DNA of 64,000 bases from Candidatus Eiseniibacteriota bacterium. Lineage in GTDB: Bacteria > Eisenbacteria > RBG-16-71-46 > CAZAMP01. The stretch covers positions 2,976,001-3,040,000 of the forward strand of contig OZ245046.1 of the NCBI GenBank assembly GCA_965224245.1. Direction: 5' to 3'. Numbering within the stretch: the stretch's first letter is position 1; every line of letters begins with the position of its first letter. Under the pieces are notes generated by a model, which worked only from the letters and a program-made list of their open reading frames with translations, was not told where the DNA came from and ran no database searches. Made by a program: the position numbers and the translations under genes. Below are positions 2,586 to 21,036 of the stretch, one piece after another.

Positions 2586-5500
2586 TCACGCGCGACGCCC
2601 CCCGGCCCGGAGGCGCGCGAACCGGGCCTCGTCCAGGCGGCCGGCCAGGAGGTCCGCCACGCGCTGCCTCCGCTGCGCGGCGCTCGTGGCCGGCGGAAGG
2701 CCGACGCGGTCCCGCCGGGCATCCGCGGCGCCGAGAAACCGGGCGGCCAGCCGCGGATGGGAGTCCGCGAGGAGCTCCGCCACCGCCTCCAGCGTATCGG
2801 CCTCCCCGACCGTGTCCCCGATGTCGCGCCGCTGGCGGAGGCTCTCGAAGAGATGCGCGCGGGCGGCGTCTCGGTCGCCACGGGCGAACGCGATCGCCCC
2901 CAGGTTGTGATGGGTCTCCGCGGTGCCGCGGCGGTCGTCGAGCGTGCGCCGTACCGACAGCGCCTCCTCGTGGTACTGCCACGCCCGATCCAGGTCACCC
3001 AGGCGCTCGGCCACCGTGCCCAGGTTGTTCAACGAGTTGGCCTCCGCGACCCGGTCGCCGAGGTGCCTGCGCAGCTCGAGGCTCTCGAGATAGTGTCGCT
3101 CGGCGGTCGCGTAGTCGCGCTCGCGCTCGGCGACGACGCCGAGGTTCAGGAGCGACGTCGCGACCTCGCCGTCGCGTCCGGCCTCGCGATGCATCGCGAG
3201 CGTCGTCTCGAACGCGCGCCGAGCCTCGTCGTGGCGGCCCGCGAAGATGTGCACGACGCCGAGGTTCCCCATCGCCCGGGCCACCAGGAGCTCGTCGTCC
3301 AGCCGGCGTCCACGTGCGATGCACGCCCGATAGCGCGCGGCGGCCGCGTCGACGTCGCCCTGATCCAGCGCCAGGTTGCCCTCCCAGTTGAGGGCGTTCC
3401 CCAGGACCGTGGGCGCCGCGTCGTCGGGAACGGCCGCGATGGCCTCGCTGAGACGGCGACGTCCCTCGGACCAGAGGCCGCGGACGTGCCAGTACTGGCC
3501 CATCCACGTGGCCACGCGCAGCGCGACGACCGGATCGTCGGCGAGCGCCCGCTCCATCGCGACCACCACGTCGGGAAGCGCCTCGTCGATCCGGCTCAGC
3601 CAGGCCGCCTGCTCGGGGCCACGCACCCCGTCGGCCGCCCGCGAGACGAGATCCACGACGACCGCACGGTGCCGCTCCACGAGCGCGGCGTCGGGGGTCG
3701 ACGTGCGGACGGCGTCCGCGACGCGCGCGACCACGCGATAACGGAGACCCGACGCATCGGGTGAGGGCTCGTTCCGCCCGCTGGCCGGAACCGCGTCGAC
3801 CAGCGCCATGTCGCAGAGCTCGAGGAGCGCCGGCATCAGCCGCTCGGGCGGCAGCGCGTCGTCGGCGCAGACGCGGACCAGGGCGTCGGCCCCCGCCGGG
3901 GACGCGAAGATCGGCATGCGCGACACCAGGCATCGTGCGCCGGCCGACAGACGGTCGAGGCTCCAGGCGATGGCGCGGGTCACGGCGTCCTCGGCGTCCG
4001 GCGGTGCGAGGGTGTGGAGCGCGGCCTGCACGCGCGACCGTGCCGCCGCCGCCAGCTCGATCGCGAGCGGGAACCCACCCACGCGGCGGCAGACCTCGGC
4101 CACCTCGGCCAGCTCGACGGGATCGGCCGGATCGAGGACGCTTCCGTCGTCGGGGGACCGCGCCGGCTCGGCTCCACTCGCGTCGCGCGATGCCACGTCG
4201 AGAAACAGCGCGATCGCGGGCGAGCGCGCGAGCGTGGCCGCATCCCCGCCCGGGGGCGGCACCGGCAGCGCGCGCACACGCACCGTGGTCGCCGAATCGA
4301 GCGGCGCGCGCGACGTGACGAGAAGACGGGCCCGGGGACCATCCGCGAGATCGGTGACGAGTCGGGCGACATCCTCGAGGAGCGCATCGGCCTGGTCGAG
4401 GACGACGAGCCGGCCGGTGGCCTCGATCGCATCGCGCACGGCGCCCTCGAGCGAGCGATCGCGCCCCTCGCCCACGGCGAGAGCGCGGGCCACCCGCAGC
4501 AGCACATCCGACCGGTCCCGTGCGCCGGCGAGATCGACGACCACCGACCCGCCGGGCGCGACCGACCGGTCCCCGTGCACGGCGCGGGCCACCTCTAGGG
4601 CCACGCGCGTCTTGCCGACCCCGCCGGGCCCGACCAGCGCGACGCACCGATGCGTCACCAGAAGCGCGGATACCATCGCGATCTCGTGCGCCCGCCCCCG
4701 CGTCGGCGTGCGAGCGCCGTCCACCGCGGGATCCATCGGCGGCACACCCGCGTCCGCGCCGGTCCCCGGCGGCTGCCGCGCCAGGGCGAGCGCCTCCGAG
4801 AGGATCCGGCGGCACGCGTCGGCGCTTCGGGGGCGGTTCGACGGATCCTCGTCCAGCGCTCGATCGATCATGTCCGTGACGGCCGGGACCCCGTCGAGGG
4901 ACGCCGGCCAGGGCGGGCGCGCGGGGCCTTGCCCCGTCACGTCGGCCCAGCGGGATCCGGTCAGGCACTCGAAGAGCACGACCCCGAGCGACCACACGTC
5001 GGCGCGGGTGTCGATCTCGTCGCCGCGGCGCGCCTCGGGGCTCACGTACCCGGGCGTGCCCACCGGCAGCGCCGACTCGCCGCCGAGCTGCGCGATCCCG
5101 AAGTCGAGGACCTTCGCGGTGCCGGCCGGTGTGACCACCACGTTGGACGGCTTCAGATCGCGGTGCACGAGCCCCCGGGCGTGGGCTTCGGCCAGCGCGA
5201 GCGCGACGTCGTGTCCGACGGCGAGCGCCCGCTCGAGCGACATCAGCCCCGCGTCCAGGACCGCGCGGAGCGTGCGCCCCTCCACGTACTCCACGACGAG
5301 CCGGGGCTCGGGGTCGGACACCTCGAGCGCCAGCACGCGCGCGATCGCCGGATGGTCGAGCGACGCCAGCACTCGGGCCTCGCGGGCCAGTCGGCGCCGG
5401 GCCGACCGGGCACGCGGCTCGTCGAGGAACTTCAGCGCAACGCGGCGACCGGACTCGTGCCCGGTTGCCAGCCACACTTCTCCGGCGCCGCCCGCGCCGA

Positions 5501-6158
5501 GACGTTCGACGAGCACGTAGCTGCCCGAGCGCGCGCCCGGGATCCGCCCCCGCGAGGGGGTCGGCTCCCCGGCGGCCTCGTCGTCTCGGTCACCTTCGGT
5601 CGGCTCACCCAGACGCTCGCTCAGGAACTCCCGCGCACGCGCCCAGTCGCGCTCGATCGTGCGCGAGGTGACACCCAGGAGCTCGGCGGCGTCCGCCGCA
5701 CGGAGCCCGCCCAGACCGATCAGCTCCACGACGCGCGCCTGGCGCGGGGACAGCCGCCCGAGCTCGGCGAGCGCGTCCTCCAGCGCGATCGCGTCGCACA
5801 CGTCGCCCGGCGGCGTGCCCCCGATCGACGACAGCGACACGTGCGTGACGTTGCCGCCCCGCTTGCGCCGTCCCTTGCCGCGCGCGTGATCCACCAGCAG
5901 CCGTCGCATCGCCTTCGCGCTGAGCGCCAGGAACTGCCGCCGCGACCGGGCCGACACGTCCGCGCCGGCGCTGACCCGGATGAACAGCTCGTTCACGAGG
6001 CCCGCGGGATCGAGCGTATGATCGCGGCGTTCGCCGATCATCTGTCGCCGCGCGATGGACAGCAGCTCGTCGTAGGCCGCGGCGAACGCATCGGACAGGA
6101 CCGACCGGGCCGGGGCGTCGGTGTCGAGACGCGCGAGCAGGCGTGTGATCTCGGTCAT
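2586..6158 (-). CDS. Fusion protein: ECF sigma factor + Ser/Thr protein kinase + P-loop (STAND/NB-ARC-like) ATPase + TPR repeats
   Basis: N-terminal YDELLSIARR..HTLDPAGLVNE..RKRGG..RTIERDWARAR (kinase-associated ECF type); kinase motifs GAGGAGEVW, VALK, HRDLKPSN, DFG, GTPGYVSPE; Walker A GPGGVGKT; GGFPLAIELAAA; C-terminal TPRs (ANSLNNLG). Confidence 0.88.
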   Translation of the reverse strand: MTEITRLLARLDTDAPARSVLSDAFAAAYDELLSIARRQMIGERRDHTLDPAGLVNELFIRVSAGADVSARSRRQFLALSAKAMRRLLVDHARGKGRRKRGGNVTHVSLSSIGGTPPGDVCDAIALEDALAELGRLSPRQARVVELIGLGGLRAADAAELLGVTSRTIERDWARAREFLSERLGEPTEGDRDDEAAGEPTPSRGRIPGARSGSYVLVERLGAGGAGEVWLATGHESGRRVALKFLDEPRARSARRRLAREARVLASLDHPAIARVLALEVSDPEPRLVVEYVEGRTLRAVLDAGLMSLERALAVGHDVALALAEAHARGLVHRDLKPSNVVVTPAGTAKVLDFGIAQLGGESALPVGTPGYVSPEARRGDEIDTRADVWSLGVVLFECLTGSRWADVTGQGPARPPWPASLDGVPAVTDMIDRALDEDPSNRPRSADACRRILSEALALARQPPGTGADAGVPPMDPAVDGARTPTRGRAHEIAMVSALLVTHRCVALVGPGGVGKTRVALEVARAVHGDRSVAPGGSVVVDLAGARDRSDVLLRVARALAVGEGRDRSLEGAVRDAIEATGRLVVLDQADALLEDVARLVTDLADGPRARLLVTSRAPLDSATTVRVRALPVPPPGGDAATLARSPAIALFLDVASRDASGAEPARSPDDGSVLDPADPVELAEVAEVCRRVGGFPLAIELAAAARSRVQAALHTLAPPDAEDAVTRAIAWSLDRLSAGARCLVSRMPIFASPAGADALVRVCADDALPPERLMPALLELCDMALVDAVPASGRNEPSPDASGLRYRVVARVADAVRTSTPDAALVERHRAVVVDLVSRAADGVRGPEQAAWLSRIDEALPDVVVAMERALADDPVVALRVATWMGQYWHVRGLWSEGRRRLSEAIAAVPDDAAPTVLGNALNWEGNLALDQGDVDAAAARYRACIARGRRLDDELLVARAMGNLGVVHIFAGRHDEARRAFETTLAMHREAGRDGEVATSLLNLGVVAERERDYATAERHYLESLELRRHLGDRVAEANSLNNLGTVAERLGDLDRAWQYHEEALSVRRTLDDRRGTAETHHNLGAIAFARGDRDAARAHLFESLRQRRDIGDTVGEADTLEAVAELLADSHPRLAARFLGAADARRDRVGLPPATSAAQRRQRVADLLAGRLDEARFARLRAGGRRA

Positions 6159-8906: not shown

Positions 8907-9219
8907 GGAAAGAAGTCACCTTTCGTCCGATTTGTCGGGGCCCAGCCTTGGAACGACGGCCCCGGCCGGCTGCACTGGCGCTCCCGTGCGTCGGTCCCCG
9001 GATCCACCCCTACCCGCGGGTGGGATCCAGCAGCCGGCCTGTCGCTCCGGGACATCGATGAGTGACGCGAGCGGCGCGTTCATTACACGCCGCCGCGAGA
9101 TCCGCGGCCACGCGGGCCCCACCGCGCCCGGCCGGTCGAGACGGGGCCCCGGCGTCGGGCTCGAGGACGCCGGACCGAACTCCAAGGGAATCAAATACAA
9201 CGTCTTACGACGTCGATCG

Positions 9220-10608
9220 GTGGACACCGTCGTCGGCCTCACGTGGCTCCTGGGCCTGGCCTGTGCGTCGCCCCACCTCCCGACCCACCGAGAATCCGAA
9301 CGCACGTTCGAGGTCAGCGAGATCGACAACCCCGTCGAGTGGGTGTGGTCGGGGGCGCTGACCCCCCGATCGATCCGGGTTCGGGCGCGGGTCTCGCGTC
9401 CCTCGGCGAGCGTCCGGCTGATCCTCACCCCGACGACGACCGATGGCGCCCCGGGGGTACCTGTGCGCGCGGTCAGCGCGGTGGCCGACGACGCCTCGCT
9501 CCGGGTGGCCACCTTCGACGTGGACGCGCTCACACCGGATACGCGGTACACGTACGCCGTGGAGGTGGACGGACAGATCGACGCCGCCCGGATGGGCGGG
9601 TTCCGCACGCCGGCAGCCGGTGCGTTCGACTTCACGGTCGCGTTCTCGGCCTGCGCCCGCACCGGCAGCAACGGCGCCGTCTTCGACGAGATCGCCTCGC
9701 ACGATCCGATCCTCTACATCGCCACCGGCGATCTCTTCTACGGCGACTTCACCGTCAATCGACCCGAGTGGTTTCGCGACGCGTACACCGAGGTCCTCAC
9801 CGCGCCGGCGCAGGCGTCCCTGTACCGTCACGTCCCGATCGCCTACGTGTTCGACGATCACGACTTCGGCCCCAACAACGCGTCCGGGAGATCCCCGTCG
9901 GCCCCGGCGGCGCAGGAGACGTTTCGCGCCTTCGTGCCGCACGCCCCCCTCGTCGAGGAGAGGGGGCCCATCCACCGGGCGTTCACGATCGGGCGGGTCA
10001 CGTTCGTCGTGACCGATCTCCGCTCGCGGCGCGATGCGCCCGACCGCGCGGTCATGCGCCCGCCGCGCTCGACGATGGGAGAGGCTCAGCGCGAGTGGTT
10101 CCTGGGAACCGTGCGCGAGGCGAGCCGCACCGCGGCGCTGGTGGTGTGGGTGAACACCTCGCCGTGGATCGCCGACGGTGGCCTCTTTCAGGATCACTGG
10201 GGGAAGTACGCCGAGGAGCGTCGGCTGATCGCCGACGCGTTCGAGAACGACGGTGTCCGGAACCTGGTCATGCTCTGCGGCGACGCGCACATGCTGGCCA
10301 TCGACGACGGATCGCACAATCGCTATGCGTCATCGGGTCGACCGGGCTGCCCGGTCTTCAACGCCGCCCCGCTGGATCGCGAGGGCTCGTTCAAGGGGAA
10401 CGGCACGTACACGTGGGGACCGGAGCTCGAAGGCGGGCAGTACGGCCTGATGACGATCCGAGACGACGGCGGCGAGTCGATCGGCGTCACCTGGCAGGGC
10501 TTTCGCGTGGACGCCGGGGAGCGCATGCGGCTCGACATGGAGGTGTCCCGCGCCGGCGGTATCCGGATCGTCTCCAACCCGACGACGCCCGGCGGATCGC
10601 CCCCTTAG
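9220..10608 (+). CDS. PhoD-like alkaline phosphatase D family metallophosphoesterase, probably exported or a lipoprotein; start uncertain (9058-9220)
   Basis: FSAC, TGDLFYGD, DDHDFGPNN, TDLRSRR, LCGDAH motifs; N-terminal hydrophobic stretch ending LGLAC. Confidence 0.85.
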   Translation: MDTVVGLTWLLGLACASPHLPTHRESERTFEVSEIDNPVEWVWSGALTPRSIRVRARVSRPSASVRLILTPTTTDGAPGVPVRAVSAVADDASLRVATFDVDALTPDTRYTYAVEVDGQIDAARMGGFRTPAAGAFDFTVAFSACARTGSNGAVFDEIASHDPILYIATGDLFYGDFTVNRPEWFRDAYTEVLTAPAQASLYRHVPIAYVFDDHDFGPNNASGRSPSAPAAQETFRAFVPHAPLVEERGPIHRAFTIGRVTFVVTDLRSRRDAPDRAVMRPPRSTMGEAQREWFLGTVREASRTAALVVWVNTSPWIADGGLFQDHWGKYAEERRLIADAFENDGVRNLVMLCGDAHMLAIDDGSHNRYASSGRPGCPVFNAAPLDREGSFKGNGTYTWGPELEGGQYGLMTIRDDGGESIGVTWQGFRVDAGERMRLDMEVSRAGGIRIVSNPTTPGGSPP

Positions 10609-10666
10609 CCACGCCGAACGCAAGACGGCCGCGCCCCATGGGCGGGGACACGGCCGTTCGGGGTGG
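10609..10666. terminator. GC-rich hairpin between convergent genes
   Basis: ccacgccgaacg...cgttcggggtgg and acggccg/cggccgt arms; no U-tract. Confidence 0.4.
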
Positions 10667-10673
10667 AGTCGAT

Positions 10674-12035
10674 CTACCAGTGGCGGATCATCTCCATGTA
10701 TGTCTTCGCATCGAAGTCGGGCGAGTTCGCCTGATCGTGGCAGCTCGTGCAGGTGTTGGCGGTGAGCAGCGTCTTGTCGCCCGGATGGAGCGTCCCCATC
10801 TGGTGACACGCCTCGCACTGCACGGCGGTGAGATCGGGCTTCATCGTGGCGCTCTGGAAGCCGGTCTTGGCGCCCTTGCCGGTGACGTGACAGGACACGC
10901 AGTCGTCGTTGGACTCCATGCCCATGTCGACCAGCGTGGCCCAGGCCCTCGCGTGCGGTCCCTGCTGCCACTTCTCGAACTCGGTCTGGTGGCACCGCGC
11001 GCACGTGTCGGCCCCGAGGAACCGATCGACCTCCTGCTGGTTCTGGAACTCGGCCTGCTTCGCCAGGCGCTCTTCCTTCTGAATCCGCTTGATCTCGGCG
11101 TCCATCTCGTTGACGAGCGTCTGGACGTGCGGATCCTTGCGCGCGGCCTTCTCGTCGAGCTGCTGCGAGCGTCCGTCGTACTGCACGACGGTGCCGGTCT
11201 CATCGACCTCCATCTCCAGCCACGCGATGTACTGCCCTCGCGTACCCGGCCGCACGATGATCGTGCTGCCGACGGTCGTGTGCGTGGCGCGCAGCCCGCC
11301 CCGGTGACCGAGCACGGCCACGTCGATGTCGGGTTGACGGCGCACGACCGAGTCGGTGAACGCCAGCTCCATCTGCGAGAGCAGCACGAGCACGTCGCAG
11401 CCCGCGTCCTTGAGGTCGCTCACGATGCGGTCGGCGCTGGTGAACACGTCGTCGGCGACCAGGGGCTGAGGCGCCTGGACCGCGCGTTCGACGACGTCGC
11501 TGTGCATCAGGCTGAAGATCCCGACCTTGTGGCCGTCCATCTCACGAATCGTGTACGGCTCGGACACGGGGGCCCGCACGCCGTTCCTCTCCGTGTAGAC
11601 GTTGCTCAGGAGCACCGCCGGCTGCCCCTCGGCCAGCTCCGCGAAGTGTTGCACGTCGCGGCGGAGCTCGCGCTCGCCGGGAGACACGGCGTCGTAGCCG
11701 ATGCGCTTCATCGTCTTGAAGATGAAGTCGGACTTGAGCTCGCCCCACGTGGGGTTCAGATCACCCCAGTTCCCCGCATCCACGACGAGGGTGTTCTCGG
11801 TGATCGCGCGAATCGAATCGACGAAGGTAGCCCGCCGGGCCAACCCACCTTTCTGGTTCTTCTTTCACCCGCACTCTTCGATCTCGCCGTTGTTCGAGGC
11901 CGTGGCGAGAACGTACATCTTGGTGACCTTGCCGGTGGGCTGTGCCGCCTGGGCGAAGTGAGGGCCGATCGCGAGCGTTCCGATCGCGAGGCCGCCGAGC
12001 GCGATCGCACTCAGCAGCGCGTGTGGCTTCTGCAC
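10674..12035 (-). CDS. Secreted UshA-like (5'-nucleotidase fold) selenoprotein with C-terminal tetraheme cytochrome c (c554-like) domain; Sec encoded by TGA at 11865-11867
   Basis: RBS GAAGGAG, GTG start 12035, signal peptide ...HFAQA; frame reads NNGEIEECG-TGA-KKNQKGGLARRATF directly into ORF 10674..11843; 4 CxxCH motifs (CARCH, CVSCH, CEACH, CTSCH); the neighbouring paralog has ECGC at the same position. Confidence 0.88.
11823..11864 (-). promoter_or_regulatory. Candidate bacterial SECIS element
   Basis: 3' of the UGA: AAGAAGAACCAGA-AAGGUGG-GUUGG-CCC-GGC-GGG-CUACCUU hairpin with a G-containing apical loop about 28 nt after the UGA. Confidence 0.65.
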
Positions 12036-12255
12036 GAGTTGAGCTCCTTCGTGAGAGACGAACGATCCGGATCATCTTCCCGGGTGGTTCGAAGCGTGCG
12101 ATACCCTATCAGAGCGCGGGCGTGCGAGTCGAGCGCCACCACCCGGTGGTGCGCCGACATCCGCCGCCGACGCCGACGCCGAACGTTAACAATCCAGATC
12201 GGCTCCTGGATCGCCCGCTCGGGCGTATTTACATGGCCTTTACGACGACCGCGGG

Positions 12256-13689
12256 TCACTCGGACCGGACCGGCTCGTCTCCGCCGGCCGGTCGGTGCAG
12301 GATCCTCGTCCAGTACGACGCCGGGTCGAACGCCGGGGAGTTCTCCGCGTCGTGACACCGCCGGCATCGCGACGGCTCCACCGGCGGAACGGCGCCCCGA
12401 TCCGGATGACCATCCGGCACGGCGTGACACGCCGCACACGCGACGCCTCGCGCCCGCGAGCGTCGCTCCGAGGCGCTGGCACCGTCCGGCTCATCGGTCA
12501 CCTCGCCCGCGCCGGCGTGATCCGGTGGCCCGGGCGAGGTATCGTGACAGCTCACACAGGCCGCCTCGTCGGGGAATCCTGCGTCCACGAGCGTCTCGAA
12601 TGCGCGGGCATGCCGCGTGGTGCGCCAGTGGGCGTGCTCCGTCTCGTGGCACGACGCACAGGCCGCGTCCCCGGACCCGGCGGGCGACCGCTCGGAACCG
12701 GCTCCCCGGGCGCGCGCCGCCGCTTCGAGCAGCTCCCGTCGGTGGGCGGCGGCCCGCCGGGCCTCGATCTCGCGTACCCAGCGGTACACGGCCACATCCT
12801 GGGGAAAGCTCTCCAGGAGACCGTGCGTCCGCCCCGCGACCTCGGCCAGGCCGGCGGCGTCCATGCGCAGGACCACCTCGGCCAGGTAGCGACCGCGATC
12901 GCCCGGATGAACGTACACGGTGCCGTCCGCGACCCCATGCGTCGGATCGGCGGGGGGCGAGTGGCTCGACACCACCACGTCGAATCCGGCACGGCGGCCG
13001 AGCGGTCGCACGTCGCGGTGCGGCACGTGGGCGAACAGGACGAGCGCATCCGCGCCCGCGGCGCGCATGTCGGTCGCCACGGCCCGAGCGGCCTCGGCCG
13101 GATCCCGGACCAGGAACCCACCGACCGGCGGCGGGAGCTCGTCGACGAGCCGGGGGGCGATCACCGACGAGACCCCGACCACGAGGTCCCCCATGGGAAC
13201 CAGCACGTACGGACGGAAGGCCGCCCGGACGCTGTCGCCGGACTCCCGGAACAGGTTCGCGTTCACGAAGGGAGGTCCGGCCGGGTCCTCGGCGGCGCCG
13301 CGGGCGAGCTCGAGCGGGCCCACGCCGGCTGCCCGGTAGCCTTCGCGGGCCAGGTACACCCGGATGGAATCGGAGACACCGATCGCATCGTCCCCGCGCA
13401 CGCTGAAGTCGCCGGCGTCGAGCAGGACGAGCTCGCCCCGGAGTCGCAGCGAGTCCACGAGCGCCGAGCGCCGCGCGAGCCCGCCCTGCGGGCCGGACCG
13501 GCACCCGCACTCGGCGATCTCGCCCGCGACGGCCGCCGTGACCGCGAAACGCGCCTCGCGATATCGACCGGCACCCGGCGGCGTGCGGGCGGCACACGCG
13601 AGCCACGAGCACGCGACCACGACCGCCGTGATCCTCGCCAGGCGGGCCGTTGCGGGCGCGCCGGCGCGCGACTCAGCCCTCCTGCTCAT
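12256..13689 (-). CDS. UshA-like CGC-motif protein with tetraheme cytochrome c domain (Cys paralog), probable lipoprotein
   Basis: GEIAECGCRSGPQGGLARR, LLDAGD, HPGDRGRY; CASCH, CVSCH, CAACH, CRRCH; N-terminal hydrophobic stretch with WLAC. Confidence 0.85.
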   Translation of the reverse strand: MSRRAESRAGAPATARLARITAVVVACSWLACAARTPPGAGRYREARFAVTAAVAGEIAECGCRSGPQGGLARRSALVDSLRLRGELVLLDAGDFSVRGDDAIGVSDSIRVYLAREGYRAAGVGPLELARGAAEDPAGPPFVNANLFRESGDSVRAAFRPYVLVPMGDLVVGVSSVIAPRLVDELPPPVGGFLVRDPAEAARAVATDMRAAGADALVLFAHVPHRDVRPLGRRAGFDVVVSSHSPPADPTHGVADGTVYVHPGDRGRYLAEVVLRMDAAGLAEVAGRTHGLLESFPQDVAVYRWVREIEARRAAAHRRELLEAAARARGAGSERSPAGSGDAACASCHETEHAHWRTTRHARAFETLVDAGFPDEAACVSCHDTSPGPPDHAGAGEVTDEPDGASASERRSRARGVACAACHAVPDGHPDRGAVPPVEPSRCRRCHDAENSPAFDPASYWTRILHRPAGGDEPVRSE

Positions 13690-16600
13690 AGAAGATCTCC
13701 GGCAGCGCCTTGACACCGATCCAGAACTGGTAGCTCACCGCCGACCCCAGGAGCTGTCGCGAGAAGCGCGCCTCCCAGCAGTGGAGATCGCGCACGATCG
13801 ACAGCGTCGAGCTCGTGACCTCCGTCTCTCGCAGATCGGCCGACAGGTTGTAGCGCACGCTCCACTTCGGGGTGACGGGAACGGTGAAGCTCCCGTTGGC
13901 CGTGCTCGTGTAGTTGCTGGGATCGGCGCCTCGCCGGTACGTGGCGCGGAGCGTGGCCGCCCAGGGCAGTCCGGGCTGCGCGCGTTCGCGATCGCCGAGG
14001 AGATCGCGACGGCGCTCCGGCACGTCCGACACGTCCTCGGCCAGGAAGTCCGATCCGGCGGGGAGCGCACCCGCGGTCTTGCCGCTGAGGCTCAGGTTGC
14101 CCGAGATCGACAGGCTGGTGAGTCCTTCGCCGTAGACACCCTGGGTCCCCGAGAAGTCGAGGTTGAACAGCCGGTGTGGCCGCAGACGTCCGCTGGCCGT
14201 GATCGGGGACCAGGGCTGCTCGTCGTCCTCGAAGTCGTAGCCCGAGGACAGGTTGATCGACATGAAGTCCTTCACCGTCCGGGGCTCGTCCTCGCCGGAG
14301 GCGAGCCTCGCATCGAAGCTGTTGTTCAGCGTCAGCGAGAGCCGGCGCGACAGTGACGAGCCGCCGAACGAGATGCCGCCCACGGACGGGAACCGGCTCC
14401 GGCGGATTCCGTCGTCGTCGACGTAGGAGCCGGCGGTGTTCTCGGGCGTGTACGTGAACGTGGCGGCCGGCTGCATCACGTGACGAAGCGCCACGATGGG
14501 CCCCACTCGGCGGTTGAACGTGCCGTAGACGGTCGTGCTGGTGCGCGCGCCCGCGGACCAGCGTCCGGCGCGTTGCCACTTCTCGCCCCGGTTGTCCTCA
14601 TCGAACAGGAACTCCGAGTAGCTGAAGCGAGGCGACACCGCGAGCGGTCCCAGGCTGCGGTTGTCGGAGACGTCGACGTTGTGACGGGCGGCGAACGCCG
14701 CGGAGGCGGGGCCCTCCTCGATCTCCTGCTCGATGCGCGACGCCCGGAACGCGTATCCCCAGCGCATCGTGCTCAGCAGCGGCAGGAAGCCGCCGTCGCG
14801 TCCCGAAGCCTCGCGCCCGATCGGACGCTGGCTGAGGCTGAACGACACCGTCGGGAGCGTGTTCGTGACCGCGACGCGGCCGGAGTCGGCCTCGAGGTCC
14901 TGCGTGCGCGACAGGTTCAGCCCCAGCGACGCACCGGTCCACCGGCGTGAATAGGCGAGGTTGGACGTGAGCACGCGATCCACCTGCTGCTCGATGTTCT
15001 CGCCGAGGCCCTGGTCCAGAAGAAACCGGCTGCTGCTGACGAAGTTCGCGTCCACGGTCAGCGTTTGATCCGGTCCGAGATCCTGCGCGTGCCGGGCGCG
15101 GAACTCCCAGTCCCGGCTGCGCGGCTCGGCGTCGGTGTAGAACCGCTCGCGCGGGGGGCCCTCGGCCGACAGCGAGGTGTACACGGCGCCTTCGAAGGCG
15201 TGCGTGAGCTTGTAGCGCGTGTCCAGGTACCCGATCCAGCGGGGGCCCTGGGCGCGGGAGCCCGAGAAGCCGGGCGCCTCGAAGTCGACCCACGCACTGA
15301 GATCCGCGTAGTCGCTGAACGCCCAGTAGTAGCCGACGTTCCGGAGATAGCGACGCCGGTCGTCGATGCCGATCTCGTAGCCGAAGCGCAGCCAGCCCGA
15401 GCGCCGTCCGCGCTCGATCGGAAACAGGAAGTACGGAACGGCGAGAATGGGAATGTCGGCGACGTGCAGCACCACCGGCCGTCCCACGACCTTGTCCTTC
15501 AGCCGGATGCGCACCTGGGGGATCAGGAAGTGGAAGTGCGGGTCGTCACGATCGCAGGTGGAGTACTTGCAGCTCTCGACGTAGAGTGTCTCGTCGTCGA
15601 TCTTCTTGATGCGACGTCCCTGGAAGTAGCCGCCGTCGAGCTCCGTCTTGCCGTGATGCACCACCCCCTGCTTGGCCTCGACGTCGTAGTCCATGGCGAC
15701 GCCGGTGACCACGCCGCCGGGATCCTCGAGCGACGGCTCCTCCGAGGCGACGATGGTCTGGTTCCGGGTGTCGAAGACGACGCGGCCGGCGCGCAGCCAC
15801 GCGTCCTGGTACTGCACGGACGCGGCGTCGCTCAGCATCAGGTCGCGAGTGGTCATGTCGTAGGTGACCTCCTCGGCCGCGTACGTGACCTCGTCCATGC
15901 CCCCGGGAAACAACGAGTCGGGCGGGACGACCGACTCGAGGGGCGCGATGCGGGCCGCCCAGGCCACCGAGTCCGAGACCGCGGAATCGGGCGTGGCGAC
16001 GACCGGCTCCGGCTTCGCCGCGAAGACGTCGCCGAGTCGCAGCACGCTCACCGAGTCCGCTCCGGCGCTCTGGCGGCCGGGCTCCAACGCATCTCCGATC
16101 GAGACCGAATCGGGCGCAGCTCCCGGGCCGGACGCCTCCCGGCCCAGCGGCGGGCCGGCGTCGCCCGGCGGGGCGGCGCCGGACCCGGCGTCGGCCGTCT
16201 CGCCGGCATCCGTGCCGGACATTGCGCCGGCGTCCGTGCCGGGCATTGCGCCGGTGTCGGCATCGGGCGGCGTGCCGGCGTCGGTGTCGGGCGTCGCGCC
16301 GGCGTCGGTGTCGGGCGGCGGCGTGTCGCGCTGCTCGTCCGTCGCCGGAGATCCTTCCTCCTCGCCGGGCTCGATCCCATCCGCGGCGCCGCGATCCCGC
16401 GCGCGATCCCGCGCGCGATCGCGCGCGGGTTCTGCCGTCGCCGCCGTGTCGGGTACCGCCGGGGCCGTGCCGTTCTCCGCCGCGAACCAGTAGCGGCCGG
16501 TCGCGTTCCCCTCCAGGATCACCGTCGACACCTGCCCCTCGTGGAACAGGAGCCGGATGCGATCGGCGTCCGCGTGATTGGCGCCCGTGCCGAGGGCCAG

Positions 16601-17719
16601 GTCGAACGGGGACGGCGTGTAGTCGCTCGTCGCGTTCCCCTCGAGCTGGAGGCTGTCCATCACGCCCTCCGAGAAGTGCGCGACGGCGTCGTCACCGTAG
16701 GCGATCGTGCGCTCGCCGCGCTTCTGCCCGGTCTTGGGCTCCTGACGGACGATCACGCGTCCGTGCGCCTCGAGGCGCTCGATCTCCTGATTCCGGTGGA
16801 ACACGACGAGCGTGTCGGCGCGGATGTTCGCCACGGGGTCCCAGGCCTCGGGCGATCCGGTGAGCCGGACGTAGCCGGCGTCCTCGTCGAGGAGCGCGTG
16901 GTCGGCCCGCGCCTGCACGTCGCCCTGCCAGATCCGGACGGTGCGGAGCGCCTCGGCCCGGGCCGCCTGACGGGCCAGCCGGAGCTCCTCGGCCCGCACG
17001 CGGAGCGGCCGGGTGGTGCCGTCGCTCGTGGTCTGGAGGATGGGGTCGCCGGTGACGATGGTCAGGTCGGTGTCGGCGTTGTAGACCATGCGCTCGCCGG
17101 TCACGCGGGAGCCGGACTCGACGTCCCGGGCCACGACGTCCACGCGCGCCACCGCCACCCCCGACGCTCGGTCGTAGTCCAGGCGACGCGCCGTGATCGT
17201 GCCCACCGTGTCGGCCACCGTCACGTGCCCCCACATCCTGACACGCTCCTCGTCGCGCCACACGTGGGCGGTGTCGGCCTCCGCCCGGAAGAGGCCGTCG
17301 TGAGCGCGCACGTCGCCGACCAGCACCGCGAACGCGTTCCGGCGGTGGTAGACGAGGCTGTCGCAGCGGACGGTCGAGGAGCCCTCGACCAGGAGGACGT
17401 GCCCCACGAGCGTGGCGATCTCGCGCCGGTTGTCCCAGCGCCCGCGATCGGCGGTGACGGTGAGGGAGTCGTGCGTGATCCGGACGTCGACGAGCTCGCC
17501 GACGTCCGCAGCGCCGCGGGAGCCCCTGAACGTGTCGGCCTCGATCGTCCAGGATCGTTCCGAGCGCTGGGCGGCGAACACATCGCCGATCGCGCCGATC
17601 CAGAGCGCCGCCACCACGCCGAGGAGCGTCGCGCGCGCGCGACGCCTCGCACACGCGGCCCTCCGGGCACGGTCGCGCTCGGGGTGGCGGCGGTCGGTCG
17701 AACGAAGACGCTGGATCAT
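13673..17719 (-). CDS. lptD: LptD-like LPS assembly outer-membrane protein with an extended N-terminal OstA/LptA-like beta-jellyroll region
   Basis: Repeated ADT/ADR-type beta-jellyroll segments; YSTCDRDDPHFHF, PVVLHVADIPILAVPYFLFP, RSGW, C-terminal RDLHCWE; start at ATG 17719 inferred. Confidence 0.8.
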   Translation of the reverse strand: MIQRLRSTDRRHPERDRARRAACARRRARATLLGVVAALWIGAIGDVFAAQRSERSWTIEADTFRGSRGAADVGELVDVRITHDSLTVTADRGRWDNRREIATLVGHVLLVEGSSTVRCDSLVYHRRNAFAVLVGDVRAHDGLFRAEADTAHVWRDEERVRMWGHVTVADTVGTITARRLDYDRASGVAVARVDVVARDVESGSRVTGERMVYNADTDLTIVTGDPILQTTSDGTTRPLRVRAEELRLARQAARAEALRTVRIWQGDVQARADHALLDEDAGYVRLTGSPEAWDPVANIRADTLVVFHRNQEIERLEAHGRVIVRQEPKTGQKRGERTIAYGDDAVAHFSEGVMDSLQLEGNATSDYTPSPFDLALGTGANHADADRIRLLFHEGQVSTVILEGNATGRYWFAAENGTAPAVPDTAATAEPARDRARDRARDRGAADGIEPGEEEGSPATDEQRDTPPPDTDAGATPDTDAGTPPDADTGAMPGTDAGAMSGTDAGETADAGSGAAPPGDAGPPLGREASGPGAAPDSVSIGDALEPGRQSAGADSVSVLRLGDVFAAKPEPVVATPDSAVSDSVAWAARIAPLESVVPPDSLFPGGMDEVTYAAEEVTYDMTTRDLMLSDAASVQYQDAWLRAGRVVFDTRNQTIVASEEPSLEDPGGVVTGVAMDYDVEAKQGVVHHGKTELDGGYFQGRRIKKIDDETLYVESCKYSTCDRDDPHFHFLIPQVRIRLKDKVVGRPVVLHVADIPILAVPYFLFPIERGRRSGWLRFGYEIGIDDRRRYLRNVGYYWAFSDYADLSAWVDFEAPGFSGSRAQGPRWIGYLDTRYKLTHAFEGAVYTSLSAEGPPRERFYTDAEPRSRDWEFRARHAQDLGPDQTLTVDANFVSSSRFLLDQGLGENIEQQVDRVLTSNLAYSRRWTGASLGLNLSRTQDLEADSGRVAVTNTLPTVSFSLSQRPIGREASGRDGGFLPLLSTMRWGYAFRASRIEQEIEEGPASAAFAARHNVDVSDNRSLGPLAVSPRFSYSEFLFDEDNRGEKWQRAGRWSAGARTSTTVYGTFNRRVGPIVALRHVMQPAATFTYTPENTAGSYVDDDGIRRSRFPSVGGISFGGSSLSRRLSLTLNNSFDARLASGEDEPRTVKDFMSINLSSGYDFEDDEQPWSPITASGRLRPHRLFNLDFSGTQGVYGEGLTSLSISGNLSLSGKTAGALPAGSDFLAEDVSDVPERRRDLLGDRERAQPGLPWAATLRATYRRGADPSNYTSTANGSFTVPVTPKWSVRYNLSADLRETEVTSSTLSIVRDLHCWEARFSRQLLGSAVSYQFWIGVKALPEIFYEQEG
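16201..16322 (-). repeat. Degenerate 24-bp tandem repeat (about 5 copies) inside the lptD linker
   Basis: Encodes PDTDAGAT-PDTDAGTP-PDADTGAM-PGTDAGAM-SGTDAGET; nearby 12-bp gcgatcccgcgc repeats (16391-16426) encode RDRA x3. Confidence 0.8.
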
Positions 17720-17912
17720 GCGGCCATCTACGCTTCGAGGTGTCGGTCGATCGAGACGCGGGGGTCCGCGCCGTCGGACGGAGCGCGAGCGCTGGGACGA
17801 TACCCGGCCGGGGCCCAGAGCGCGACCCTCCTCGACACCGCACCGGTGAGACGCGTCGATCCCGCTGCCGGTTCCGCACCGTCGAAGGCGCGGCCCGCTC
17901 CGCCGGGCCGCC

Positions 17913-18857
17913 TCAGCGGACCGCGAACTCGTTCGCGTACATCGCCGCGCCGATCGCGCCGGCCTCGGCTCCGAACGCGGACGGCACCACACGCGGCTTC
18001 TGATCGGTGGGCGCCATCGTGTGCGCGTGCACCGCCTCGGCGACCGGCCCGAGCAGCACGTCCCCCGCGCGGGCCACACCCCCACCGATCACCACGCGAT
18101 CGACGCTCAGGAGATTGCAGACCCCGGCGAGCGCGATGCCGAGGATGCGCCCGGTCTCGTCGAACGCCCTCCGCGCGGCCCAGTCGCCGCCGGCGGCGGC
18201 CTCGGCGATGCGCTTGGGGGTCAGCGCGTCGATCTCCGACCCGAGAATGCTCTCGGCGCCGCTCTCGACGAGACGCCGCGCCCGCTCCACGATCCGCGCG
18301 TTGCCCACGAACATCTCGAGACACCCCCGTCCACCGCACGGGCAGCGCGGCCCGTCCACGTCGACGCACATGTGACCGATCTCGCCCGCGGTGCCGAACG
18401 CACCCCCGAAGAGTCGACCGCCGGCCACGATGGCGCCGCCGACGCCGGTGCCGAGCGTGACGTACAGCCCGCACCGCGCGCCGTGCCCGGCGCCCAGCGC
18501 GGCCTCGCCGAACGCGAACGCGTCGGCGTCGTTGATCAGGGTGACCGGCAGGCCGGCGGCCTCGGCCAGGAGATCGCGCAGCGGCACGTCGCGCCAGCTC
18601 GGGAGATTCGGGGAGAGGCCGACGATGCCGCGCTCGACGTCGATGAGCCCGGCGCACCCGACCCCGATCGCGGTGGCCTCGGAGCCGGCGAGCTCGGCGA
18701 CCTCGGCCACGGCGGCGGCCAGCTCGGCGATCAGCCGGTCGACGTCCTCGCCGGAGCCGGTGGGCACGCTACGGGTCAGCCGGACCCCGTCCGCCGGCGC
18801 CATGGCGACCAGCTTCACGTGCGTGCCGCCGACGTCCATGCCGACGACGAGGCTCAC
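17913..18857 (-). CDS. ROK family sugar kinase (glucokinase-like)
   Basis: GMDVGGT, NDADA, TLGTGVGG, GEIGHM, CPCGGRGCLE; GTGA overlap with the folC stop. Confidence 0.9.
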   Translation of the reverse strand: MSLVVGMDVGGTHVKLVAMAPADGVRLTRSVPTGSGEDVDRLIAELAAAVAEVAELAGSEATAIGVGCAGLIDVERGIVGLSPNLPSWRDVPLRDLLAEAAGLPVTLINDADAFAFGEAALGAGHGARCGLYVTLGTGVGGAIVAGGRLFGGAFGTAGEIGHMCVDVDGPRCPCGGRGCLEMFVGNARIVERARRLVESGAESILGSEIDALTPKRIAEAAAGGDWAARRAFDETGRILGIALAGVCNLLSVDRVVIGGGVARAGDVLLGPVAEAVHAHTMAPTDQKPRVVPSAFGAEAGAIGAAMYANEFAVR

Positions 18858-20173
18858 GACGCGGCCCCCGACGGCGTCCGGCGAGCGCCCGCGGCGATCG
18901 GCGTCGCCCGCGGGATGATCGGCGCGATGCCCAGATCCGACATCGCCTGCCCGACCGTGAACAGCGATCCCGTCACGAGCACCGGCATCGTCGTCGGCGA
19001 CTCCGCGATCGCCGTCCGGACCGCTCGGCCCGGCACGGGCTCGACGAGACAGCGAAACCCGCGCGCCCGGCAGAGCTCGGCCATGTCCGCGGCCTCGAGA
19101 CGGCGCTCGGGGTGCCCGGGCGTGGTGACCACGAGGAGCTCGGCCCAGCCCGAGAGCACGTCCAGGACGGGATCGTGCGGCTTGTCGGCGAGCATGCCGA
19201 ACACCATCACCGGACGGAGGTCGCCGTACCGGGCCCTCCACAGCCGCTGGATGGCCGCAATGCCCGCCGCGTTGTGCGCGACGTCGAAGATGACGTCGCG
19301 GCCGTCGACCGGGCGCCGGTCGAACCGGCCGGGCCAGCGCGCGGTGGCCAGCCCGATCCGACGGGCCTCGTCGGGTACCTCGAACGCGGTGTCGCCGAGG
19401 CGATCGATCAGCGAGAGAGCCAGCGCGGCGTTCTCGGCCTGGTGGTCGCCGGGGAGCGAGAGCGCGTACCGGCGCCGATCGGGACCGAAGACGAGGCCGG
19501 TGTCGGTGGGCTCGAAGTCCGATCCGCGATCCACGAACGTAAGATCGGCGCCCCGTGCCAGCGCGATCGCCTGCAGGACCGCCCGCGCCGCGGGCTGCGT
19601 GGCGGTGGACACGACCGGCGCCCGCTTGATGATGCCGCCCTTCTCGCGCGCGATGTCCGCGATCGTGTCCCCGAGGATGCGCGTGTGCTCGAGACCCAGC
19701 GAGGCGATGGCCGAGCCGATCGGCTCGATCACGTTGGTGGCGTCGAGGCGCCCCCCGAGTCCGACCTCGAAGACCGCCACGTCGACGCCGGTCCGCGCGA
19801 ACGCCTCGAACGCCAGCATCGTCGTGGCCTCGAAGAACGAGGCGTCGACGCTCTCCAGCGCGGGGCGGATCTCGTCGAGGACGACGGCCAGCATTCCCTC
19901 GTCCGCCGGATCGCCGTTCACGCGAACGCGCTCGGCGAACGACACCAGGTGCGGCGACGTGTTGAGGCCGACGCGAAAGCCCGCCGCCTCGAGCATGGCC
20001 GCCAGGAACGCGGCGGTGGAGCCCTTGCCGTTGGTCCCGGCCACGTGGAGGCTCGCGTAGCGTCGCTCGGGATGGCCGAGCCGGTCGCAGAGCGCCACCA
20101 TGCGCTCGAGGTCGTACTTGATTCCCTGGCGGCGCAGCGACGTGATCGCGCGCTCGAACTCGGTGAGACTCAT
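18854..20173 (-). CDS. folC: Folylpolyglutamate synthase/dihydrofolate synthase
   Basis: HVAGTNGKGST, TSPHL, EVGLGGRLDATNV, EKGGI, WPGR, DVAHN, TGSLF; ATGA overlap with accD. Confidence 0.95.
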   Translation of the reverse strand: MSLTEFERAITSLRRQGIKYDLERMVALCDRLGHPERRYASLHVAGTNGKGSTAAFLAAMLEAAGFRVGLNTSPHLVSFAERVRVNGDPADEGMLAVVLDEIRPALESVDASFFEATTMLAFEAFARTGVDVAVFEVGLGGRLDATNVIEPIGSAIASLGLEHTRILGDTIADIAREKGGIIKRAPVVSTATQPAARAVLQAIALARGADLTFVDRGSDFEPTDTGLVFGPDRRRYALSLPGDHQAENAALALSLIDRLGDTAFEVPDEARRIGLATARWPGRFDRRPVDGRDVIFDVAHNAAGIAAIQRLWRARYGDLRPVMVFGMLADKPHDPVLDVLSGWAELLVVTTPGHPERRLEAADMAELCRARGFRCLVEPVPGRAVRTAIAESPTTMPVLVTGSLFTVGQAMSDLGIAPIIPRATPIAAGARRTPSGAAS

Positions 20174-21036
20174 CCCTCGACCGTGGCTCCACCGCCCCCG
20201 GTCGTCGGGTTCGCTCGCTCGCGCGCGGACGCGAAGAACCCGAGCAGTCGCGCGAGGTTGTCGTGCATCTGACGCCGGTCGACGATCTGATCCACGTGTC
20301 CGTGCTCCAGGAGGAACTCCGAGCGCTGGAATCCCTCGGGCAGCTCCTGGTTGATCGTCTCGCGGATCACGCGCGGCCCCGCGAAGCCGACGAGCGCCCG
20401 CGGCTCGGCCAGGATCACGTCCCCGAGCGTGGCGTAGCTCGCGGTGACCCCACCGGTGGTCGGGTGCGTCAGGACCGAGATGTACGGAAGGCCTACGTCG
20501 CGCAGACGTCCGAGCATCGCGGAGGTCTTGGCCATCTGCATCAGCGAGAGGACGCCCTCCTGCATCCTGGCACCACCCGACGCCGACACGATGACGATCG
20601 GGCATCGCTCGGTCAGCGCGTCGTCGATGGCCCGCGCGATGCGCTCGCCGACGACCGACCCCATCGATCCGCCCATGAAGCTGAAGTCCATCACGGCCAT
20701 CGCCGTGCGGTGACCGCCGATGGTCGCCATCCCGGTGACCACGGCATCGGTGGCCGGTGACTTTTCGAGGGCCAGCTTCAGCCGTTCGGAGTACTTCTTG
20801 GAGTCCTTGAACTTGAGCGGGTCGGTGGAGCGCAGCTCGTCGTGGCGCGGCTCGAAGGAGTCGGGGTCGGTGAGGATCGCGACGAACTCGGTCGATCCGA
20901 TGCGGAAGTGATGCGCGCAGACCGGACACACCCACGACTGGCGCGCCAGCTCCTTGCGATACTGGATCTCGCCGCACCCGTCGCACTTGACCCAGGCGTC
21001 GCTGGTCGCATCGCTGCCGTTTCGGCTCGGTACCAC
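20170..21036 (-). CDS. accD: Acetyl-CoA carboxylase carboxyltransferase beta subunit
   Basis: WVKCDGC..CPVC zinc finger, GGSMGSVVGE, SGGARMQEG, PTTGGVTAS, GFAGPRVI; RBS GGAGGT before GTG 21036. Confidence 0.95.
   Translation of the reverse strand: MVPSRNGSDATSDAWVKCDGCGEIQYRKELARQSWVCPVCAHHFRIGSTEFVAILTDPDSFEPRHDELRSTDPLKFKDSKKYSERLKLALEKSPATDAVVTGMATIGGHRTAMAVMDFSFMGGSMGSVVGERIARAIDDALTERCPIVIVSASGGARMQEGVLSLMQMAKTSAMLGRLRDVGLPYISVLTHPTTGGVTASYATLGDVILAEPRALVGFAGPRVIRETINQELPEGFQRSEFLLEHGHVDQIVDRRQMHDNLARLLGFFASARERANPTTGGGGATVEG

Follow-up and report, generated by a model that had tools for sequence, protein, structure and literature searches.

The window analysed here is a 64,000-nucleotide stretch of contig OZ245046.1 (positions 2,976,001 to 3,040,000) from a Candidatus Eiseniibacteriota bacterium, and its minus strand carries, at positions 10674..12035, a predicted selenoprotein gene of 453 amino acids (aa) and a TAG stop, with homologue alignment covering residues ~36-453. 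The coding sequence starts on GTG (12035-12033), 8 nt downstream of a Shine-Dalgarno-like GAAGGAG read directly from the sequence (12044..12050, minus strand), crosses one TGA at codon 57 (11867-11865) and ends on TAG (10676-10674). Read through, the product contains ...NNGEIEECG-U-KKNQKGGLARR..., in which UGA codon 57 (11865..11867), assigned to selenocysteine (Sec) by comparison of TGA and Cys forms at this column, closes an E-C-G-U motif. A mechanical list of open reading frames (ORFs) begins the gene at TTG 11843 and recovers 389 aa only, and the public gene call for the window is the same truncated protein (P0003; 100% identity over 86% of the query), which leaves the gene without its signal peptide, strand 1 and the Sec motif; a signal peptide is present in the read-through form and absent from the 389-aa ORF. 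The initial annotation had extended the frame upstream through a single TGA to a GTG preceded by GAAGGAG and followed by a signal peptide, all elements that are present in the sequence, and had anticipated the truncation by automatic annotation that P0003 bears out. Scanning positions 10400-13900 returned no promoter-like site and one terminator-like site, which lies inside the gene on the wrong strand and is no more than shuffled sequence gives.

The putative signal peptide (approximately residues 1-30, ...HFAQA/AQ; 11946..12035) was recognized by eye from a hydrophobic stretch and an AxA motif, and homologues have comparable N-termini in the alignment. An AlphaFold2 model computed from a 30-sequence alignment has a predicted local distance difference test score (pLDDT) of 88.8 and a predicted template modelling score of 0.72, with residues 1-27 disordered (pLDDT <50). 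The protein comprises a 5'-nucleotidase/UshA-fold, metallophosphoesterase-like domain with a degenerate metal site at approximately residues 36-300 (11136..11930), a long linker helix at residues 302-334 (11034..11132; assigned by DSSP on the model) and a cytochrome c554-like tetraheme domain at residues 339-453 (10677..11021), all on the minus strand. Foldseek aligns the model with CD73, the Thermus 5'-nucleotidase 2z1a and E. coli UshA at E values of 3.5e-22 to 4e-18 over ~300-335 columns. The UshA fold claimed by the initial annotation therefore holds for the N-terminal domain (CD73 and 5'-nucleotidases, E 3.5e-22, ~315 columns) and does not extend beyond it. The sole Pfam family recovered is cytochrome c554, PF13435 (52.8 bits; gathering threshold 20.8), with neither a metallophosphatase domain nor a 5'-nucleotidase C-terminal domain found in the selenoprotein. 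By sequence, residues 339-420 match Nitrosomonas cytochrome c554 (PDB 1bvb) at E 2.1e-08, and the four CxxCH motifs, CARCH 345-349 (10989-11003), CVSCH 379-383 (10887-10901), CEACH 407-411 (10803-10817) and CTSCH 429-433 (10737-10751), are invariant in 30/30 aligned sequences.

Aligned to Thermus 2z1a, the selenoprotein has five of the six classical metal ligands replaced, and the catalytic His as well, reading S-x-N where the nucleotidase has D-x-H, GN for GD, GERE for GNHE, Q for H and GHRG for GHxH. The DAGN, GERE and LSQ motifs that had initially been described as degenerate ligands align with the GD, GNHE and H motifs of 2z1a, and the metal-ligand positions vary across the 30 family members. 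The residues that are invariant among these sequences are C55, G56, U/C57, G63, G64, R67, R68, G88, N145, D238, H361 and H417, with H452 kept in 90%. The C-G-U triplet sits in the loop after strand 1, just past the lost DxH metal motif, and the nucleotide-binding domain of nucleotidases is swapped for the tetraheme domain behind the same long linker helix. Short paralogues that possess the C-x-U or C-x-C motif and no hemes exist in both Sec and Cys versions and often adjoin the long form; they show the motif to be the constant functional element of these proteins.

The window's own genome (G000; 6.94 Mb in 27 contigs, 97.4% complete) encodes selA (515.8 bits), selB (324 bits, or 353.4 bits with its C-terminal piece), selD (378.4 bits; G000:C1:4218184-4219107, plus strand) and a tRNA-SeC of 98 nt with anticodon tca. 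The selD gene itself contains one in-frame TGA, so that selenophosphate synthetase would be a selenoprotein in this genome. Directly upstream of the selenoprotein gene lies a Cys-form paralogue with four CxxCH motifs (12256..13716, minus strand; exact start uncertain), which aligns at 33% identity (E 7e-51) and has EIAECGCRSGPQGGLARR at the aligned position; the ECGC that the initial annotation had reported there is seen in this alignment. As this paralogue stops on TGA (12258-12256, minus strand), TGA is not a general sense codon in the genome.

Six non-nucleotidase paralogues of the genome align at the Cys/TGA motif, three with TGA (the window gene, ECG*K; C1:2360077, PCG*K; C1:5175300, PCP*R) and three with Cys (the adjacent gene, ECGC; C1:5532994, TCGC; C1:5243423, QCGC), and one further relative in the genome, the seventh (C1:3750507), keeps NDIHG and is an ordinary nucleotidase. 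Among relatives, the C-G-TGA column is kept in 30/30 fetched loci (28 recognized by pattern; L036 and L044 assigned by eye). Forty of the 41 genomes of the same class, own genome counted, contain a homologue at E <= 1e-20, and a single TGA interrupts the best match in 38/40 of these. Of the other two, G016 has no TGA, and G019 has a match at a contig end that holds 2 TGA and 1 TAA. QCGC is found in the nearest database homologues of full length (P0004, P0006 and P0009; 54-55% identity), and most other close database hits, at 369-392 aa, are as long as a truncation at the TGA would make them. In a wider set of 80 loci from many phyla, 55 have the TGA form and 6 only the Cys form, with 19 lacking a pattern match. 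Contigs independently assembled from four public runs, which represent two samples of one study and of which three may be the source of the assembly itself, cover the TGA codon with 0 differences; the public runs listed include no RNA data set.

A hairpin ~28 nt downstream of the UGA is predicted to act as the selenocysteine insertion sequence (SECIS). Identified by comparison with relatives, it consists of a 6-bp core stem, UGGCCC/GGGCUA, closing a GGC triloop (11824..11846, minus strand), and in the alignment its stem can be followed over 10 columns on each arm, one mismatch included. The distance from the U of the UGA to the start of the loop is 31 nt, and the sequence that forms the hairpin encodes G-L-A-R-R-A-T-F. 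We examined 35 TGA forms, 33 from loci L021-L050 and two from the paralogues in the own genome, and in each of them an unbroken run of 5-11 bp (mean 7.4) closes a triloop that begins with G (GGC, GGA or GUC) and lies 28-34 nt from the UGA. In 12/12 Cys forms, by comparison, the same spot offers a stem of only 1-4 bp; the GG[LV]AR peptide is kept there and the codons differ. A stem of >=5 bp, that is, occurs in 35/35 TGA forms versus 0/12 Cys forms, one of the 12 being a 122-aa ORF in L026 that is probably a chance pattern match, and 8/16 extra Cys-form regions that fell outside the pattern were left out (L052, L053, L055, L057, L059, L063, L065 and L066).

The alignment of 33 sequences adds covariation to this difference. 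Pairing is retained in 89.4% of SECIS cells, a value reached by 0/500 shuffles and compared with 33-58% for slid controls. Column pair 27-39 is occupied by GC in 17 sequences, CG in 9, GU in 5, AU in 1 and UG in 1, with none unpaired, and column pair 30-36 by CG in 31 and UA in 2. For bacterial SECIS elements, bSECISearch applies a spacing rule of 16-37 nt and a 'G in the loop' rule. An Rfam search of positions 9000-15000 at E <= 1 gave no match. These comparisons strongly support a SECIS role for the predicted hairpin within the coding sequence, and its pattern is how a SelB-binding element embedded in a conserved coding region should look. Decoding of UGA-57 as selenocysteine by the SelA/SelB/SelD/tRNA-Sec system of the genome is likewise strongly supported. 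The initial annotation had proposed this decoding and had named Cys/TGA alternation among homologues, selenocysteine genes and a possible sequencing error as what would bear on it; the alternation is found in paralogues, relatives and close database homologues, selA, selB, selD and tRNA-Sec are all present, no sign of an error is seen at the codon, and the hairpin is specific to TGA forms.

Both TGA paralogues of the own genome lie outside the window and look unannotated. One (PCG-U; G000:C1:2359996-2361309, plus strand) has four hemes and scores 194.3 bits against the NCBIfam model NF041198, and the other (PCP-U; G000:C1:5175207-5176127, plus strand) is a short form lacking the heme domain; the SECIS hairpin is shared by both, at 6 bp. 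The Cys-form TCGC member (C1:5532991-5534241, plus strand) sits within an open frame of 907-927 aa and may be a longer fused form.

By far the best NCBIfam match of the window gene is to this same model, NF041198, named UshA_like_PCGU, 'UshA-like (seleno)protein' (E 1e-69, 235.5 bits), and both halves of the 519-position profile are matched (12-284 and ~361-517), the heme half included. The NF041198 family and the window gene have the same two-part architecture, the same C-G-U column and the same SECIS position. They differ in that the window motif is ECGU rather than PCGU, the protein is 453 aa long against the 519 profile positions, and its score lies below the cut-off of the model. The family was tabled as 'COG0737, UshA-like, CxU' with 76 selenoprotein sequences in 2008 (Zhang & Gladyshev 2008, PMC2398784), and the discussion section of that paper leaves it without a classical redox motif assignment; passages in two reviews (PMC9312934 and PMC13188914) tie the COG0737 UshA-like CxU family to NF041198. 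The family, whose earlier bioinformatic prediction the initial annotation had acknowledged, has thus been catalogued since 2008, and the window gene is a known kind of selenoprotein whose public call shows a routine truncation at UGA.

Comparison with characterized proteins places each half of the molecule. E. coli UshA, human CD73 and Thermus 2z1a share with it the N-terminal alpha/beta sandwich, the long linker helix, GG-x-AR and DAG(D/N); unlike them, the window protein has lost its metal ligands, has a tetraheme C-terminal domain and carries Cys-Gly-Sec inserted after strand 1. Cytochrome c554 of Nitrosomonas europaea (1bvb, PF13435) has four CxxCH motifs in the same order and spacing pattern, whereas the heme domain of the window protein is C-terminal and fused to a Sec-bearing domain. 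We know of no link between this heme domain and hydroxylamine oxidation. A weak match to the GSU2203 decaheme model was also recorded (29.4 bits against a cut-off of 325). Membership in the SoxB thiosulfohydrolase family (TIGR04486) was considered and rejected, as the score of 62.2 bits against a cut-off of 550 reflects only a general family resemblance. ExtKL (NF040886), the GSU2204 family and an octaheme cytochrome of the tetrathionate reductase family are, in the portion of a review that treats them, likewise periplasmic c-type heme Sec proteins predicted by comparative genomics (PMC13188914), but the folds around their Sec are unrelated to that of the window protein.

With high confidence, we take the best joint explanation to be one intact gene for an exported, UshA-like Cys-x-Sec selenoprotein with its own SECIS, a remodelled nucleotidase fold and a tetraheme domain, probably acting as a redox enzyme. 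A heme-coupled Cys-Sec redox enzyme is the best reading because the metal ligands and catalytic His are replaced and the nucleotide-binding domain has given way to a cytochrome c554-like domain, and export is expected because a c-type cytochrome needs it and the read-through form alone has a signal peptide. In this proposal the protein would work in the periplasm, where Cys55 and Sec57 may cycle between selenol/thiol and selenenylsulfide states in the former active-site cleft. The heme domain would sit where the C-domain of nucleotidases closes over the cleft, and the four hemes would pass electrons between the Cys/Sec centre and the periplasmic cytochrome c pool. Candidate substrates include peroxide, a sulfur or selenium compound and protein thiols. 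The enzyme would thus be of the type that the initial annotation had surmised, coupling a CxU centre to four hemes.

Several observations weigh against this interpretation or parts of it. Folding the 81 nt or 60 nt that follow the UGA yields predicted energies that do not improve on those of shuffles (z -0.35 and +0.54, respectively), and mean folding energy does not separate Sec from Cys forms (-16.1 versus -14.6 kcal/mol), a distinction made by the position-specific stem count alone. Because the DNA is GC-rich the folding-energy test is uninformative, so the SECIS is argued from comparison with relatives instead. The hairpin also overlaps a conserved peptide, hence part of its sequence conservation is protein-level. 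Among 81 loci (80 relatives and the window), no conserved neighbouring gene indicates a substrate, the literature found gives no experiment on Sec insertion, heme attachment or activity in the family, and the electron path from the hemes to the Cys/Sec centre is one that we infer. Furthermore, 235.5 bits is below the curated NF041198 cut-off of 275, equivalog membership is formally not reached, and under NCBI's own rule the gene is therefore not named by that model.

This shortfall is shared by other members of the family. The nearest relative, L022, scores 235.3 bits and L137 scores 263.1, and the cut-off is passed by 7/10 relatives tested, which carry Eisenbacteria, Fibrobacteraceae and delta-proteobacteria labels and range from 281 to 369 bits; only 10/30 aligned class members reach about cut-off level (E <= 1e-81). 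The window gene is, judged by its sequence, a divergent member of a known family in a branch below the reach of the curated model, and a model that misses this branch together with some two thirds of the aligned class members under-reaches in the phylum.

Were the TGA to terminate translation, as a true stop or through a nonsense mutation, this locus would hold a pseudogene, or a short upstream ORF followed by a 389-aa cytochrome starting at TTG 11843, as default ORF calling and the public call both give; TGA does, moreover, act as a stop in the neighbouring paralogue. Against this, the TGA column persists in 30/30 relatives with exactly one TGA in the best match of 38/40 class genomes, orthologues and paralogues have Cys at this column instead, homologues align over the 56 codons upstream of it, which encode the signal peptide needed by a c-type cytochrome, the hairpin is specific to TGA forms, and the genome has full Sec machinery. 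We consider a true stop extremely improbable. We give equally little credence to a protein that is still a phosphoesterase, nucleotidase or SoxB-like hydrolase to which Sec is an accessory. Its N-terminal fold and sequence do resemble those of 5'-nucleotidases, CpdB and SoxB, but the protein has lost the catalytic His and all but one of the six metal ligands, the metal-ligand positions are not conserved across the family, Pfam finds neither of the two nucleotidase domains, and the SoxB model stays at 62 bits against its 550-bit cut-off.

A different role for a genuine Sec would be that Cys55 and Sec57 act as ligands, either together, in a newly formed metal centre within the remodelled pocket of the dimetal site, or singly, as the sixth ligand of a heme. 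Such ligation has a parallel in the His/Cys hemes of SoxAX and TsdA. The C-G-U triplet is placed where DxH metal ligands sit, E123 and D86, close to the former metal site, hardly vary, and only three invariant or near-invariant histidines outside CxxCH motifs (H361, H417 and H452) are available for four hemes, so that one heme has no conserved distal His. However, cytochrome c554 itself has one five-coordinate heme, and a missing distal His thus needs no extra ligand. The short heme-less paralogues keep C-x-U or C-x-C, which argues that the motif works without hemes in cis, and no conserved set of His or Asp residues suggests a new metal site. We therefore regard a ligand role as unlikely, and prefer the heme-coupled Cys-Sec redox enzyme.

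The family is distributed broadly. The relatives are mostly labelled Candidatus Eisenbacteria, followed by Krumholzibacteriota, Fibrobacteraceae, Acidobacteriota, delta-proteobacterial groups and others. Within the phylum, a match at E <= 1e-20 was found in 148/151 sampled genomes and in 117/118 high-quality genomes, a tally that takes in the own genome and one genome flagged as unpublished (G044); by hand count, 26 listed rows of this sample have no stop, and every other listed row has exactly one TGA. Our literature search returned no paper on what the family does, none joining Eisenbacteria with selenocysteine, nor one joining selenocysteine with a multiheme and a nucleotidase.

The neighbours of the gene in the window are LptD-like, ROK, PhoD-like and extracytoplasmic function (ECF) sigma factor genes. 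Upstream lie a 1470-aa LptD_2/LptD_N protein (13673-18085, minus strand) and a ROK kinase (17913-20192, minus strand), and the downstream neighbour is a convergent PhoD-like phosphatase. Elsewhere in the window, at 2586-6158 (minus strand), a 1190-aa ORF combines an ECF sigma factor domain, a Ser/Thr protein kinase domain, an AAA domain and TPR repeats in one frame. Across the 81 loci, only ROK, LptD-like and HU genes recur upstream, and the block ROK, LptD-like, (HU), UshA-like is present in 36/63 loci that have more than 3 kb of upstream flank. Carriers of the ROK/LptD-like block are Eisenbacteria-, Krumholzibacteriota- and Fibrobacteraceae-labelled records, whereas loci labelled Deltaproteobacteria, Acidobacteria or Poribacteria lack the LptD synteny. 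Since it is restricted to some lineages, we read the block as inherited gene order and not as an operon clue. Genes for Cys/Met-metabolism pyridoxal phosphate (PLP) enzymes, CBS-type PALP proteins and RNase T each recur in 13-14 of the 81 loci. Some Eisenbacteria-labelled loci carry, behind the family gene, the genes for the Cys/Met-metabolism PLP enzyme and a PALP+CBS (cystathionine beta-synthase-like) protein, an arrangement not present in the window (for example, L073:6625-8406 and L089:6732-8747; 13 loci each).

A more far-reaching possibility, which we judge quite improbable, is that the family forms a core periplasmic redox hub of the phylum, in which a selenenylsulfide enzyme is connected to the cytochrome c pool. 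Presence in 148/151 genomes, mostly in the Sec form, and the frequent LptD-like gene in front (36/63) leave this reading open. Searches of 21 genomes found DsbB in 0/21, VKOR in 3/21 and DsbA in 7/21, and the window's own genome yielded no match to any of them, an absence that leaves room for a thiol-redox role in the envelope without establishing one. Many anaerobes lack Dsb proteins anyway, however, and the LptD synteny is confined to related lineages. Two DsbA-family (PF01323) matches, G007:C4:547667-548242 and G020:C22:306730-307305, have one in-frame TGA each and are probably DsbA-like selenoproteins. If the hub reading were true, the enzyme would oxidize envelope protein thiols in place of DsbA-DsbB, or would be a heme-fed seleno-peroxidase.

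The value of the window gene lies in an annotation fix and in exposing the limited reach of the curated model in this phylum; one further member leaves knowledge of the family unchanged. The family to which it belongs is among the most widespread predicted selenoproteins without known function, and, as it looks near-universal in the phylum, with several Sec and Cys paralogues per genome, the phylum offers a good comparative set for biochemistry.

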